Shown: positions 22,389 to 31,315, counted from the first letter of the stretch. The stretch is 64,000 nucleotides of DNA from Chloroflexota bacterium (GCA_029262675.1 JAJCYW010000005.1:17402-81401), one strand, 5' to 3'. Numbers and translations: made by a program. Notes: generated from the letters alone by a model not told the origin.

Positions 22389-24791
22389 TCACCGGCAGTC
22401 GTGGTTGTATTGCTGAATCACCCCCAAGATGTCGTTTAGCAGGTCTATCACCCCATCTGGCGGAGTCATGTTCCAGGCGTTGGGGCCTTCGGATGCTCCG
22501 CGGTCGTAGTGCGCGTCGTACGGTGGGTCACCCGTGGGCGAGTAGTGCTGGATGACACTGAGGATGTCGAACAGCAGGTCGACAGTGCCGTCCTGGCCCG
22601 GCCCTGAGATCGTCTCCACATCATAGAAGTCGTACGGGTTGAGGTAGTCACGATGCCCGCCGAACTTCTCGTCCAGACCGTTCTCCTGTTGGTCGGAGCA
22701 GCCATCACCGTCTTTGTCACCATTCGGAAGCTTGGGTGGCGGTCCCAGCTCGACGGCCCGCGTGCAGAACAAGGGTGGGCCAGCGACGAACGCGCCCAGC
22801 TCAAGGCTGAACTGCGTCTGGATGTCAATGGGCGCATTGACGGCGGTGCCGCCAGCAACGAGGTAGCAGGTCAGCACCGGCACTTCCTGCAGCCCCTCTC
22901 CCGCCTTTAGAGATGGCACGCACAGCAAACCCCTGATGTTGGTGAGGTCCAATATCTCAGTGACGAACTGGTTGCTGATGAACGGATCCGGGTCGGTAAT
23001 CACGCCGCCGGTGCTTTCGTAGCAGGCATAGTAGGGCAACGGATCTGGTGTGCCCCCGCCCTTTATCGCCGGCACGCACAGGTTGACGAGCGGCCCGATG
23101 GTGTGTTCAAGCACACCGTACTGGTCCGCTACCTCAACGGTCTGGCCGCCGGCGAACGCGCTGGTGGCGGTGAAGCAGCGTAGCGTGGGCAGGAACGGGT
23201 TTCCGCTCTTGTTCTTCTCGGAAGACGGACACAAGAAGGCTCCTTCTCCGACAGTAACGACCTCGTCCATGTACTGGTTCTGGAGCACTACGCCCACGTC
23301 GACGTCAGCGCCAAGGGCCGAGTAGCACGTGTAGTACGGCCCGTTCGGCGACCCCATGCTGAATACCAGGCTACCGCCACCGGGCGCGGTGCTGAAATCA
23401 GCCACCATGATGTGGTACTGCGTACCGCCCGCGAGCGGTATGTTCTTGGACGACTGGCTATTCGACAGGGTGTCGTCGTCGCAGAAGACCGGCGTGAGCG
23501 CCCCCTTAGAGCCGACGTACACCGTGACCACGGTGTCGTAGTCGGAGCCCTCCGTGGTGATGTTCACCAGCTCGTCACCTACCGGCGTGTACGTGTACCA
23601 GACGGTATTCGAGTCTCCGCCTACCGAGCCGCAGCTTGGTCCCGGGTCGTTCCCCGCGACGGTCGCAACACTCGTGTCCGTGATGTCGCTGAACGGCAGG
23701 CGGCTGACGACGGTGCTGTCCGTGAAGTCGTCGTTCTTGGCGGCCCCAGGGCCGCCGAGCGAGTGCGTCTGGAAGAACGCCCACATCAGGTCGTTGGCGC
23801 TGATTTCATGGGTCGTCTCACCAAAAGTCGGGACATACTGGCCCAAGTCCAATGATAGGCCAGGCCATGTGTGTCCACCTCCTTCAGTTCCGGGGCCTGC
23901 GCCGTCGACGTCCTCAACGACGTACAACTCCACCGTGGCGCCTTCGACGCAGTTTTGATATCGCACCAATCGGACGCCTGCGGTCGCAGGCGCCGGCCCG
24001 TCCTGGGGCACAACACCGCAGCCGTTGTTCGCCGCCAACAGGGCGATGGCATCTTCGATGCTGTTCTTGTAAGTAAAACCCGAGACATCTGACAACCCGC
24101 CTGCGAAAGGAACGTGCAGATCAGCGGTGCCGTGGAATGCGATGATGGGAACCGGGCGAGTTGAAGGGCATCCTGGTGGCTCAGGAAACCCAACCAAATT
24201 CGGCGGGAAGTAGGTTCCCCCCACGGGAGCGACGGCAGCAATGCGATTGGCGAGGCTGCAGGCGAGTCGAACCGACATGAACGCGCCGTTGGATTTGCCG
24301 GTGGCGTAGACTCGGGTAACGTCGATGCAGAGCTGTGACGCGACGGCATCGATCAGGTCGCTGATGAACGCGACGTCGTCGGGCCCACCCGGCTCTACTG
24401 TAGATGCGTTCCAGTGCGGGAGGGCCCAGAATGTCCCTGCAGTCGGCCACCCATCAGGCGACACCAAGACGAATCCAGCCTCCTCGGCCTTGGCGGGCAG
24501 TTCGCTGAAGAAGCGCTGGAACGCTCCGCTGCCGCCGAACCCGTGGAGATTGAAGACCAATGGCACGGCGTCGGCCCCCGTATATGAAGACGGAACGTCG
24601 AGAATGTAGGTTCTCGTAAAACCGCCGGAAACGATGGTTTCATTGAAGGTGCCGTCGGCGTGCGGGCGCGCCGGGTCGCACGTGCTTACAGCTGCAGCGC
24701 GCTCTGGGCTCGCCCCCAACAAGCCGAAAGTAACGACGACCGCAACAGCGAGCAGTCCGATGGTGACGTGCATGATGTCTTGCGTTCGCAT
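22389..24791 (-). CDS. Secreted PHB-depolymerase/LpqC-type esterase + PPC-like domain + Cys-rich repeats + flexitail
   Basis: Signal peptide; LHGFGG, GKSNG nucleophile, FHGTAD, GGGHTWPG; NDDF...VWYTYTP domain; four Cys repeats; C-terminal GDKDGDGCSD...DGVIDLLNDILGVIQQY. Confidence 0.8.
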   Translation of the reverse strand: MRTQDIMHVTIGLLAVAVVVTFGLLGASPERAAAVSTCDPARPHADGTFNETIVSGGFTRTYILDVPSSYTGADAVPLVFNLHGFGGSGAFQRFFSELPAKAEEAGFVLVSPDGWPTAGTFWALPHWNASTVEPGGPDDVAFISDLIDAVASQLCIDVTRVYATGKSNGAFMSVRLACSLANRIAAVAPVGGTYFPPNLVGFPEPPGCPSTRPVPIIAFHGTADLHVPFAGGLSDVSGFTYKNSIEDAIALLAANNGCGVVPQDGPAPATAGVRLVRYQNCVEGATVELYVVEDVDGAGPGTEGGGHTWPGLSLDLGQYVPTFGETTHEISANDLMWAFFQTHSLGGPGAAKNDDFTDSTVVSRLPFSDITDTSVATVAGNDPGPSCGSVGGDSNTVWYTYTPVGDELVNITTEGSDYDTVVTVYVGSKGALTPVFCDDDTLSNSQSSKNIPLAGGTQYHIMVADFSTAPGGGSLVFSMGSPNGPYYTCYSALGADVDVGVVLQNQYMDEVVTVGEGAFLCPSSEKNKSGNPFLPTLRCFTATSAFAGGQTVEVADQYGVLEHTIGPLVNLCVPAIKGGGTPDPLPYYACYESTGGVITDPDPFISNQFVTEILDLTNIRGLLCVPSLKAGEGLQEVPVLTCYLVAGGTAVNAPIDIQTQFSLELGAFVAGPPLFCTRAVELGPPPKLPNGDKDGDGCSDQQENGLDEKFGGHRDYLNPYDFYDVETISGPGQDGTVDLLFDILSVIQHYSPTGDPPYDAHYDRGASEGPNAWNMTPPDGVIDLLNDILGVIQQYNHDCR

Positions 24792-24828
24792 GCCCTACCT
24801 CCTCCTGTGCTGGCGTCTACGCCCGAGT

Positions 24829-24858
24829 CAAGGAGCGCCCCAATTGGGGCGCTCCTTG
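24829..24858. terminator. Perfect 30-bp palindrome downstream of flexitail gene 2
   Basis: CAAGGAGCGCCCCAATTGGGGCGCTCCTTG. Confidence 0.75.
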
Positions 24859-29667: not shown

Positions 29668-29668
29668 T

Positions 29669-31315
29669 CTATGTGCAGCCTGACGGCTGGTATTGCTGTA
29701 TCACGCCTAGAATGTCGTTCAGCAGGTCGATGACGCCGTCTGGCGCCGTCATGTTCCAGGCGTTAGGCCCCGTTGTCGGCCCGCGGTCGAATACAATGTC
29801 GTACGGCGGATCTCCCCCTGCTGCTGGCTGGTAGTGCTGTATCACGCCGAGGATGTCATTCAACAGGTCGATGAAGCCGTCACCGTTGACGTCGTAGTAG
29901 TCCCACGGATTCAGCCAGTCACGGCCCCCGCCGTTGTCTACCTGCGCCTTAGGCAGGTTCTCGTTCACGTCGGCGCAGCCGTCGCCGTCAGTGTCGCCCG
30001 GGAACGGGAGCTTGCCTCCCGGCGTCGGCGTCGGGCCGGACGGCGTTGCCGTCGGGCCGGGCGTTGGTGCGCCCGCGGTGCAGCTTGCACCACCGGGGTC
30101 GGCCAGGCCGATGCCGACAGGATCGCTGCAGTTCAGATAATAGTAGGAACCATCCGGTACGCTGGGGTTAGAATCGCACGCATCTCCGATGTCGTCGAAA
30201 TCGCTGTCTGCCTGGTTGTCAGGGCCCGGTGTGATGCCTGGTGCCGGCGTCCCGGAATTGGCCGCGAAGATGCAATTATCGTAGCCGTTTTCAATGCCGT
30301 CCGTATCAGCGTCAAATTCCGGCGTTGCCACCGCCGGATCGCAGACATCGCCCAGGTAGTCCCCGTCTCCGTCGGCCTGGTCAGCGTTCGCGCTGGCAGG
30401 GCAGTTGTCCAGTCCGTTGCTTGTGCCATCGTTGTCATTGTCGAATTCGCTGACGAGGACCGCGTTGAACGTATAGCTGCCTGAAGTCGCGGGGTTCGTG
30501 TAGAGATTCTGACCGCCCTCCAGCGTTCCTGTAGCCGGATTGTCCGCGCTGGTACCGAGCAGCGTTAGCGTCAGGGATTGGGGAGCACAGAACTGGCCAG
30601 TGGCCGATTCGGGCGGCGACGTCGGGTCGTTGACAATCGTTGTCACCTGGTAGGGTCCGCCGGGCGAGACTTCGTCCACCAGTATCGTCACGAAGAGTTC
30701 CGAAAGGCCGGCGGCCTCCACGTGGCCGAAGTAGCGGGCTTTGTGCGTACCAGGAAGGAGTGAGGTAAGGAACGCGGGGTAGGCCGTGACGCCATCGGCC
30801 AAGCCGTCTCCGTTATTGTCTTCTACCGCCTCCGGCTTGCCGTCGCCGTCCGTATCGTAGCCCGGAACCGTCGTGCCCGTAGCTGTTGTGGCCTCCATCA
30901 GATCGATCTGGGTCCCGGTGCCGGGATCGAATGATACCGCCGTCGTACAGTCTGTGGCGAAGAACTGATCCGCGACGGTCATGTAGCCGGCGATGGAGCC
31001 GGCCAAGGAGCCATCGACGACGCCCGCGTCGTTTGCCACCGTCCAGCCGGCCGGAACCTGGAATTGCGCTCCCGCGGCCAGCGTACTACCTGCGGGGAAG
31101 GAGAGGTGGATCACGATGTCGGAAGCGGCACCCGGCGTTGGATTCGGGACGGCGGCGCTTACCGTGGGTGCAAACAACGCGGCTGGTGTGGGACCGCCGC
31201 CGGGGGGCAGAGACGGAATGAGGGGATGGCAGAGGAAGGCGAACAGCAACGGGGAAAGCGCGGCCAGGCCGAGCGCCAGCAGAAGTTGCCGGTAGCTGTT
31301 CGTCCCGTTCTTCAT
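29669..31315 (-). CDS. Secreted protein with thrombospondin-type-3-like Ca repeats + flexitail
   Basis: DNDNDGTSNGLDNCP..NADQADGDGDYLGDVCD; DADTDGIENGYDNC..NQADSDFDDIGDACD; flexitail. Confidence 0.78.
   Translation of the reverse strand: MKNGTNSYRQLLLALGLAALSPLLFAFLCHPLIPSLPPGGGPTPAALFAPTVSAAVPNPTPGAASDIVIHLSFPAGSTLAAGAQFQVPAGWTVANDAGVVDGSLAGSIAGYMTVADQFFATDCTTAVSFDPGTGTQIDLMEATTATGTTVPGYDTDGDGKPEAVEDNNGDGLADGVTAYPAFLTSLLPGTHKARYFGHVEAAGLSELFVTILVDEVSPGGPYQVTTIVNDPTSPPESATGQFCAPQSLTLTLLGTSADNPATGTLEGGQNLYTNPATSGSYTFNAVLVSEFDNDNDGTSNGLDNCPASANADQADGDGDYLGDVCDPAVATPEFDADTDGIENGYDNCIFAANSGTPAPGITPGPDNQADSDFDDIGDACDSNPSVPDGSYYYLNCSDPVGIGLADPGGASCTAGAPTPGPTATPSGPTPTPGGKLPFPGDTDGDGCADVNENLPKAQVDNGGGRDWLNPWDYYDVNGDGFIDLLNDILGVIQHYQPAAGGDPPYDIVFDRGPTTGPNAWNMTAPDGVIDLLNDILGVIQQYQPSGCT

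Follow-up and report, generated by a model that had tools for sequence, protein, structure and literature searches.

The locus examined here, a 64,000-nucleotide stretch from a Chloroflexota bacterium (GCA_029262675.1, JAJCYW010000005.1:17402-81401; this whole stretch is referred to as the window), raises the question of what a C-terminal tail does when it recurs on otherwise different secreted proteins. Between 22.3 and 33.4 kb, the window contains a row of minus-strand genes encoding secreted proteins, and four of them, g1 (22389-24791), g2 (24877-26247), g3 (26312-28108), and g4 (29669-31315), encode proteins that end in a tail of about 115 residues. A preliminary description, made from the sequence alone, had read these tails as elaborated dockerins serving as a portable docking or sorting tag. 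Our analysis suggests that the tail, a member of the flexitail family, is very probably homologous to dockerins. The explanation we favor, with a probability of about 0.6, is that the flexitail is a derived dockerin that docks about 50 passengers per genome onto cohesin scaffoldins at the cell surface.

The flexitail and its relation to dockerins

All four tails matched the NCBIfam model NF041520, named "flexitail", from end to end. The scores were 145.5, 127.8, 128.8, and 129.6 bits against a curated cut-off of 40 bits (E-values of 8.6e-43 to 2.7e-37), the matches ran from position 1 to position 105 or 107 of the 107 model positions, and the matches stopped 1–7 residues ahead of the stop codon. 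No model for the flexitail was found in Pfam. The four tails are plain members of the NCBIfam family, with which they share the C-terminal position, a Chloroflexota host, and membership in a large paralogous family. With the stop codon left out, they lie at 22392-22736 (g1), 24880-25230 (g2), 26315-26656 (g3), and 29672-30013 (g4), all on the minus strand. The tails of g2, g3, and g4 belong to subtype A; they were 85–87% identical to one another at the protein level and 85–86.5% at the DNA level, and GDTDGDGCADVNENLPKAQ was invariant across them. The tail of g1, which belongs to subtype B, has a long loop 1 (DVETISGPGQDG) and ends with HDCR; its identity to the other three was 63–69% at the protein level and 67–69% at the DNA level. 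The DNA similarity between the tails extended from the codons for K-L/Q-P-F to the stop codon.

Each tail contains a D-x-D-G-D-G-C motif near its start, two DG-[VF]-[IV]-DLL-x-DILGVI loop-helix units, and a cysteine residue located 1–4 residues from the C-terminal end. The preliminary description had reported these repeats, the motif, and the terminal cysteine, and had estimated the identity of three copies at about 85%; the positions, the motifs, and the estimate all proved correct.

The tail of g4 was used for structure modeling, and its elements are given here in order (all on the minus strand). Loop 0 (DTDGDGCADVNE, residues 441-452, 29960-29995) fits the 12-residue EF-hand pattern DxDxDGxxDxxE and includes the invariant N-terminal cysteine; the D, C, and E of this loop were invariant in 45 paralogues. 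Loop 1 and helix 1 (DVNGDGFIDLLNDILGVIQHY, residues 475-495, 29831-29893) are followed by a flexitail-specific insert (RGPTTGPNAWNMTAP, residues 511-525, 29741-29785), which splits the second calcium-type loop and is, according to the alignments, not present in the mini-modules described below. The second half of loop 2 and helix 2 (DGVIDLLNDILGVIQQY, residues 526-542, 29690-29740), together with the next two residues, QP, constitute a 19-residue unit 2 that is 89% identical to unit 1. The last element is the invariant C-terminal cysteine, C547 (29675-29677), the presumed disulfide partner of C447. Both cysteines were invariant in 45 of the 45 source-genome paralogues, and they probably form a disulfide clasp joining the extension to the C-terminus. 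Within the flexitail, units 1 and 2 shared a mean identity of 62% (up to 89%, and 84–89% in g2, g3, and g4), compared with a mean of 56% in the ordinary dockerins of the genome. Such near-identical loop-helix units would fit a two-fold symmetric binding face.

Around this core, the flexitail has an N-terminal extension of about 40 residues (DxDGDGCxDxxE ... GGxRDxxNPWDFY), an insert of 14 residues (RGPxxGPNxWNMTxP) that separates position 1 of loop 2 from position 5, and, in the majority subtype with the B-type long loop 1, an 8-residue insert inside loop 1. Loop 1 is canonical in subtype A only, being split by the insert in subtype B, and loop 2 is split by the 14-residue insert and has no acidic residues at positions 1 and 3. 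The model of the g4 tail had a predicted local distance difference test score (pLDDT) of 83, with helices at 17-20, 24-29, 52-61, and 99-109. Tests for EF-hands yielded sub-threshold matches only, with 12–18 bits for the Pfam EF-hand models and an E-value of 0.5 for recoverin in the search of PDB sequences.

Direct comparison of the flexitail with dockerins gave no match. HHalign returned 1.4% against the canonical dockerins of the source genome, with no direct profile match, and the flexitail profile found no solved structure among the PDB sequences beyond weak EF-hand matches (E 0.5). A subtype A tail scored 13.2 bits on Dockerin_1 (E 0.1, first repeat only), under the gathering score of 22.9 bits, and a subtype B tail did not match this model. 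The full flexitail model had no significant fold match in PDB, and its top non-significant match was to type II dockerins.

The connection was provided by intermediate modules. Four flexitail proteins, including g2, contain an N-terminal Cys-flanked module of about 60 residues. That of g2 (ACADLNGDG...TATACQS, 25867-26052, minus strand) was recognized by Pfam Dockerin_1 at residues 69-118 with 29.2 bits, over the cut-off. The N-terminal mini-dockerins bridge the flexitail and the canonical dockerins in HHalign: their profile matched the flexitail core (residues 47-114) at 97.5% (E 5.8e-12) and the canonical dockerins at 95.5% (E 1.6e-8). Five more proteins contain "mini-flexitails" of 60–70 residues, such as GCADTNGDGIVDLLNDILGIIQHYAPSGAPPYDPAFDINDDGAIDLLLDILGAITQYQVPC; three of the four tested scored 15–19 bits on Dockerin_1 across both repeats, and the fourth had no match. 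The mini-modules and the N-terminal mini-dockerins aligned to flexitail cores at 43–65% identity, differing from them by discrete inserts. An AlphaFold2 model of one C-terminal mini-flexitail had a pLDDT of 94.3, and its ten best PDB matches were all type II dockerins (probability of 0.85–1.00, template modeling score of 0.55–0.72), with root-mean-square deviations of 1.7–2.5 Å and identities of 26–31%. The description of the tails as elaborated dockerins was thus supported indirectly, by way of the intermediates and the fold of the mini-module, and was not supported in direct comparison. The proposed superposition on dockerin was obtained for the mini-flexitail model, and for the full flexitail the match to dockerins was non-significant.

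An N-to-C-terminal clasp is a general need of dockerins (PMC3821032), so that the flexitail disulfide would be a covalent version of this clasp. Similar to the type II dockerins of cellulosomal scaffoldins (X-Doc of Clostridium thermocellum CipA and Acetivibrio cellulolyticus ScaA; PDB 2b59, 5g5d, 4u3s, and 3kcp), the flexitail has a duplicated core of calcium-type loop and helix and a C-terminal position, including the end of a six-cohesin scaffoldin in one genome (G459). It differs from them in that the Ig-like X module is absent and the 40-residue extension with a third EF-hand-like loop is present instead, that the calcium loops contain the 14- and 8-residue inserts, that an invariant cysteine pair takes the place of the non-covalent clasp, and that it occurs on about 50 enzymes and binding proteins per genome and not on scaffoldins only. 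With the type I dockerin (PF00404), the flexitail shares two near-identical loop-helix units suggestive of two-fold symmetry, and some dockerins have a dual binding mode; unlike the type I dockerin, it scored 13 bits or nothing on PF00404 and had no profile match to the canonical dockerins of the genome. A full-text literature search found no paper on the flexitail domain. While the family is already catalogued as NF041520, its proposed identification, on the basis of sequence and models, as a remodeled type II-like dockerin in a large non-cellulolytic network was not found in the literature searched.

Copy number, distribution, and evolution of the tails

The source genome (3.42 Mb, 21 contigs) contained 55 NF041520 matches in about 50 genes. 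The tails were all C-terminal except for one copy inside a 2138-aa YD-repeat (RHS-like) protein; in this open reading frame (ORF; C17:111368-117781), the flexitail-like domain occupies residues 1617-1735 and has no C-terminal cysteine. A signal-like hydrophobic N-terminus was found in 48 of the 51 flexitail ORFs, and the other three were either cut by contig ends (two) or a fragment (one). The idea of a portable tag was supported by this genome-wide count of about 50 tail genes with unrelated passengers. It also agrees with the window genes: g1 and g3 have a passenger module in common and yet carry different tail subtypes, and the g3 tail is 87% identical to the g2 and g4 tails, which are attached to unrelated passengers.

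The N-terminal parts of the four proteins had been described as unrelated. This was correct for most passenger pairs, for which no BLASTP match was obtained at E<=1e-3, and incorrect for g1 and g3, which share a DUF7450-like repeat domain (g1 residues 487-682 and g3 residues 46-242 and 270-465; 44% identity, E 8e-46). The Cys-bracketed repeat occurs once in g1 and twice in g3 (window 22745-24330 and 26715-27970), and the subtypes of the attached tails differ.

Of 400 genomes sampled from the phylum, only the source genome had a flexitail match. Within its order, 32 of 93 genomes had flexitails. These included all 16 genomes of the source genome's family (f1), where copy numbers ran from 14 to at least 44, and, among the other families, both genomes of f84, 12 of the 36 of f85, and 2 of the 18 of f3; none of the 21 genomes of f2 had a match. 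The flexitail-bearing relatives are metagenome-assembled genomes classified as Chloroflexota or Dehalococcoidia (B45T1L10, B76T1B5, SZUA-185, and others). Among 1.84 billion representative proteins, 2302 clusters matched at E<=1e-3 and 1608 at E<=1e-10. In the best 150 of the 2302 clusters, the flexitail was nearly always located at the very C-terminus, and it was internal in P0130 and P0151. The passengers of the homologues included FG-GAP, RCC1, beta-helix, PD40, NHL, subtilase, and M20/M28 peptidase domains, as well as GDSL lipase, metallophosphoesterase, periplasmic-binding-protein fold, and cohesin, and no cellulases were evident among the passengers seen. One 4.6-kb contig binned as Gemmatimonadota (L082, JAZDCZ010000266.1) encodes a flexitail protein whose passenger is 66% identical to C7:111683-112759 of the source genome; it is probably a mis-binned Chloroflexota contig, transfer being less likely. 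In the source genome, nine flexitail genes, one of them a 72-aa fragment broken by TAG, form a row at C15:45304-64228, and no dedicated machinery was recognized among the ORFs flanking this cluster when their translations were judged by eye.

A maximum-likelihood tree was constructed from 123 tails of 31 genomes. The tails clustered by genome, with 13 label changes for the source genome compared with 37.5 for shuffled labels. One clade consisted of 21 tails, all from the source genome (support 99/95), and the tails of g2, g3, and g4 formed a clade with two other source-genome tails (support 100/80). Where the passengers were orthologous, the tail was nearer to those of unrelated paralogues in its own genome than to that of the orthologue. 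In one such case, the passenger was 79% identical, and the tail was 67% identical to that of the orthologue and 82% identical to that of its own paralogue. Synonymous sites agreed with this, with a synonymous divergence (dS) of 0.72 or 0.31 within the genome and 1.04 to the orthologue. The loop-1 insert was also genome-specific, being ETISGPGQ in the source genome, AGLSGPTP in the same-genus genome, and LGPGAALPT and LGGGGGPP in two others. Loop 1 occurred in both lengths in each of the two genomes of the genus, and its short variant, which might differ from the long one in its partner, was not seen elsewhere. A DNA search of the same-genus genome showed that essentially only the tails, the dockerin of the window gene p5 (described below), and two short stretches were conserved. 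Some divergent tails have retained orthologous relationships.

The tail pairs among g2, g3, and g4 had dS values of 0.39–0.50, among the six lowest of the 1035 pairs within the source genome, with a ratio of nonsynonymous to synonymous divergence (dN/dS) of about 0.2. Since the dS of orthologous tails in the same-genus genome was about 0.8–1.0, the tail-only exchange must be younger than the divergence of the two species of this genus. The 15 informative sites among the three tails were spatially clustered (runs test, P=0.04), a weak mosaic signal. No tail pair of the source genome had a dS below 0.31, which indicates that homogenization is not going on at a fast rate and that nothing very recent has occurred. 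The clustering by genome and not by passenger suggests that tails have been swapped or gene-converted, though not very recently. Recent duplication or homogenization, as proposed from the sequence, was therefore supported insofar as g2, g3, and g4 are among the closest pairs and show the mosaic signal, and was not supported in the sense of a very recent event.

Cohesins and competing explanations

The source genome encodes canonical dockerins, mostly at the C-terminus, on about 74 proteins, and about 36 cohesin modules distributed over 27 proteins. The cohesin profile of the genome matched solved cohesins, and the best three matches were cohesins of A. cellulolyticus ScaB (E 8.5e-14 to 9.6e-8), which we take to be type II. 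Among the 93 genomes of the order, cohesins were present in 32 of the 32 flexitail-positive genomes. Three genomes (G401, G402, and G445) had 15–20 cohesin modules and 16–28 flexitails with zero Pfam Dockerin_1 matches, and their cohesins included LPxTG-anchored multi-cohesin scaffoldins. Flexitail genes adjoin a scaffoldin gene in G466, G402, and G445. In addition, cohesin-flexitail fusions were found in the source genome (C10:323074-326148) and in the metagenome proteins P0032 and P0091 (PF00963).

A 1458-aa protein of G459 (L115, G459:C34:1785-6158) contains six cohesins and ends in a flexitail in place of a membrane anchor. A type II dockerin ends Clostridium thermocellum CipA, that is, at the same position as the flexitail in the G459 protein. 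The G459 protein is thus arranged like a primary scaffoldin that ends in a type II dockerin.

The numbers of modules were also compared. In f84, f85, and f3, cohesin count was correlated with the sum of flexitails and dockerins at rho 0.52 and with dockerins alone at rho 0.35, values uncorrected for phylogeny and completeness. The presence and absence of flexitails and cohesins in the order gave a Fisher p of 2e-5.

Other cohesin loci were observed in the source genome. A scaffoldin of 1891 aa, which has eight cohesins and is anchored to the membrane at its C-terminus, is encoded at C10:190029-195701, within a cellulosome-like cluster (C10:175248-195701) that also contains several dockerin proteins, a cohesin anchored by a transmembrane (TM) helix, a protein combining a cohesin with a mini-flexitail, and a protein of 740 aa with a mini-flexitail at its end. 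The single sortase gene of the genome (C10:173203-173622) is located 2 kb from this cluster. Four paralogous gene pairs (C10:2-4061, C10:61649-65762, C11:2-3986, and C2:415-4665) each consist of a gene for a dockerin protein of about 1100–1200 aa followed by one for a small cohesin with a TM anchor, and they look like dedicated plug-socket pairs.

Two cohesin genes neighbor the flexitail genes of the window, both on the minus strand. The protein encoded by p5 (28654-29667) consists of a cohesin, which is included in the cohesin profile, a Pro/Thr linker, and a canonical dockerin (Dockerin_1 at residues 262-311), the arrangement of an adaptor. The gene p6 (32499-33335), 3 kb past p5, encodes a cohesin of the GLGGY type with an LPDSG motif, a TM helix, and a basic tail, and is a putative surface anchor. 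At their C-terminal ends, the multi-cohesin scaffoldins of the relatives L111 (G401:C186), L113 (G445:C106), and L114 (G466:C44) have LPPTG or LPATG, then a TM helix, and then a basic tail. These are predicted sortase-type signals, and LPDSG occupies the same position in p6.

Two cohesins were considered as receptors of the flexitail. As a general receptor, p6 was rejected: its close orthologues were confined to G457 and G470, and the same-genus genome had none. The TM-anchored cohesin "F" (C10:182776-183777) had full-length orthologues only inside family f1; flexitails also occur in f84, f85, and f3, beyond this range, which tends to speak against "F".

According to the explanation we favor, a dockerin-type duplicated loop-helix core would have gained about 40 residues at its N-terminus, including a third EF-hand-like loop, the 14-residue insert in loop 2, in most copies the 8-residue insert in loop 1, and the invariant cysteine pair. 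The proteins would be exported by the Sec pathway, and the tail would then fold outside the cell, probably with calcium, and plug, with no covalent bond, into the cohesin modules of scaffoldins anchored in the membrane or by sortase. About 50 passengers, including esterases, peptidases, beta-propellers, TSP3 proteins, and cohesin scaffoldins, would be displayed at the surface in this way, with the ordinary dockerins running a parallel system. We propose that, because every tail of a genome has to suit the same socket or sockets, the tails evolve in concert by recombination or gene conversion confined to the tail, combined with strong purifying selection. Calcium binding, the disulfide, cohesin binding, and the choice of cohesin as the partner are inferred.

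Several observations weigh against this explanation. The calcium ligands are incomplete, which makes canonical ligation of loops 1 and 2 doubtful, above all in distant members; distant family members lack most of the loop Asp residues. The link to dockerins runs via intermediates from the same genome, and the second half of these intermediates may have been acquired from flexitails by recombination. The association between flexitails and cohesins was not significant once f2, which lacks all three modules, was set aside, and hence it does not constitute independent evidence. Neither of the candidate receptors, p6 and "F", has a distribution matching that of the flexitail. Most flexitail genes are located in flexitail-only clusters without cohesins, such as the nine-gene row on C15, and one genome (G412) has ten cohesin modules and neither flexitail nor Pfam dockerin. 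We estimate the chance that cohesin is the partner of the flexitail at a little over one in two.

The flexitail might instead anchor its passengers to the cell envelope by binding something other than a protein, for example a glycan of the S-layer, a secondary polymer of the cell wall, or a lipid, in the manner of SLH or LysM modules, and its link to cohesins would then reflect nothing but a shared surface proteome. The failure of the phylogenetic profile to pin down a cognate cohesin, the location of most flexitail genes away from cohesin genes, and the NCBI name, which says just "putative surface protein", are in line with this possibility, and a new surface for binding could be provided by the additional loops and inserts. 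SLH modules anchor scaffoldins to the wall, and the flexitail-ended scaffoldin of G459 would fit equally well if its tail did the same. However, the core is related by homology to dockerins, for which cohesins are the known partners, and neither the tails (E<=1) nor the whole proteins (E<=0.01) matched SLH or other wall-binding Pfam models, LysM included for the tails. Three cohesin-rich genomes have flexitails as the sole dockerin-like modules detected, and genome-specific concerted evolution is easier to reconcile with a protein socket that co-evolves than with a polymer that is conserved. An envelope anchor is considered unlikely. Fusion to and synteny with cohesin scaffoldins also argue for a role in a docking network over that of a calcium-dependent stabilizer or self-association module without a specific receptor, such as a folding or solubility cap or a homo-oligomerization tag. 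The three EF-hand-like loops, the probable disulfide, and the very high conservation are compatible with a stabilizer, and two near-identical helices could give symmetric self-association, but a module of this kind need not sit on 50 unrelated passengers or evolve in concert in each genome, and we regard it as very improbable.

The preliminary description had left open a sorting tag, that is, a secretion or sorting signal read and perhaps cleaved by dedicated machinery, as in the case of the C-terminal domains of type IX secretion substrates or the signals recognized by sortases and exosortases. The flexitail resembles such signals in its C-terminal position on dozens of unrelated secreted proteins per genome, in its lineage-restricted distribution, which is seen in many sorting systems, and in the cysteine near its C-terminus. 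Several features speak against this reading: the motif is followed by no hydrophobic segment, TM helix, or basic tail, the proteins end 1–4 residues past the cysteine, and the model consists of helices and loops and not of the beta-sandwich of type IX C-terminal domains. LPxTG-type signals sit on other proteins of the system. The sortase was rejected as a flexitail-specific partner, since it was present in 21 of the 21 relatives tested, flexitail-free ones included, and does not track the flexitail. Furthermore, no conserved machinery gene was recognized beside the largest flexitail cluster when the flanking translations were judged by eye, and the flexitail is internal in the RHS-like protein of C17, P0130, and P0151, while its mini form can be N-terminal. 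A sorting signal is likewise regarded as very improbable.

Returning to the derived dockerin, a more elaborate version can be put forward tentatively, at somewhat less than an even chance. In this version, the flexitail would represent a new dockerin class with three sites for calcium, inserts in its loops, and a clasp formed by a disulfide, pairing with type II-like cohesins in a two-channel, non-cellulolytic surface display system of one order of the class Dehalococcoidia. Gene conversion would keep about 50 tails matched to a fast-evolving socket as a species-specific lock and key, and the scaffoldins with six cohesins and a flexitail would form a second tier.

Genes of the window and wider meaning

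All four window genes encode a hydrophobic signal-like N-terminus, as judged by a hydropathy heuristic and not by a dedicated predictor. In g1 (800 aa), this is followed by a PHB-depolymerase-type esterase region, for which the models NF050058 and PF10503 scored under their cut-offs, the DUF7450-like repeats, and the flexitail, with the NF041520 match of 145.5 bits at residues 692-799. The likely start of g2 is the ATG at 26232, which gives a protein of 451 aa with the mini-dockerin, an unassigned beta-rich middle part, and the flexitail (NF041520 at residues 346-449). The protein encoded by g3 contains two blocks of the DUF7450-like repeats and a Pro/Thr linker ahead of its flexitail, and that encoded by g4 contains thrombospondin type-3 repeats (PF02412, TSP_3), a Pro/Thr linker, and the flexitail (NF041520 at residues 441-544).

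A similar GC-rich hairpin (AAGGAGCGCCCGG...CCGGGCGCTCCTT) was found directly 3′ of the stop codons of g1, g2, and g3 (22300-22388, 24790-24876, and 26230-26311, respectively), and these hairpins probably constitute a terminator family. No such hairpin follows g4, because the next gene, p5, begins 1 nt past the g4 stop codon; p5 is probably co-transcribed with g4. Two small secreted proteins of 137 and 141 aa are encoded at 31472-31885 and 31957-32382, respectively, between g4/p5 and p6, and they had no Pfam or NCBIfam match.

Peer et al. reportedly surveyed non-cellulosomal cohesin-dockerin systems of bacteria and archaea in FEMS Microbiol Lett in 2009. The system described here is similar to non-cellulosomal systems in that cohesins and dockerins are attached to proteins other than plant cell-wall enzymes and that the host is not known to be cellulolytic. 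It differs in being far larger, 3.4 Mb encoding about 125 proteins with a tag and about 36 modules of cohesin, and in having a second, derived class of tag.

The genome-wise homogenization of the tails provides a clear natural case of the concerted evolution of a docking tag. Orthogonal, disulfide-stabilized plug-socket pairs from organisms of hydrothermal sites could serve in designer enzyme scaffolds. If the flexitail is a remodeled dockerin, the structural range of dockerins would be widened to include calcium-loop inserts, a third loop, and a covalent clasp, and a non-cellulolytic lineage would possess a very dense cohesin-dockerin network. A testable function would also become available for the thousands of surface proteins annotated as "hypothetical" in uncultured Chloroflexota from hydrothermal and subsurface sites.

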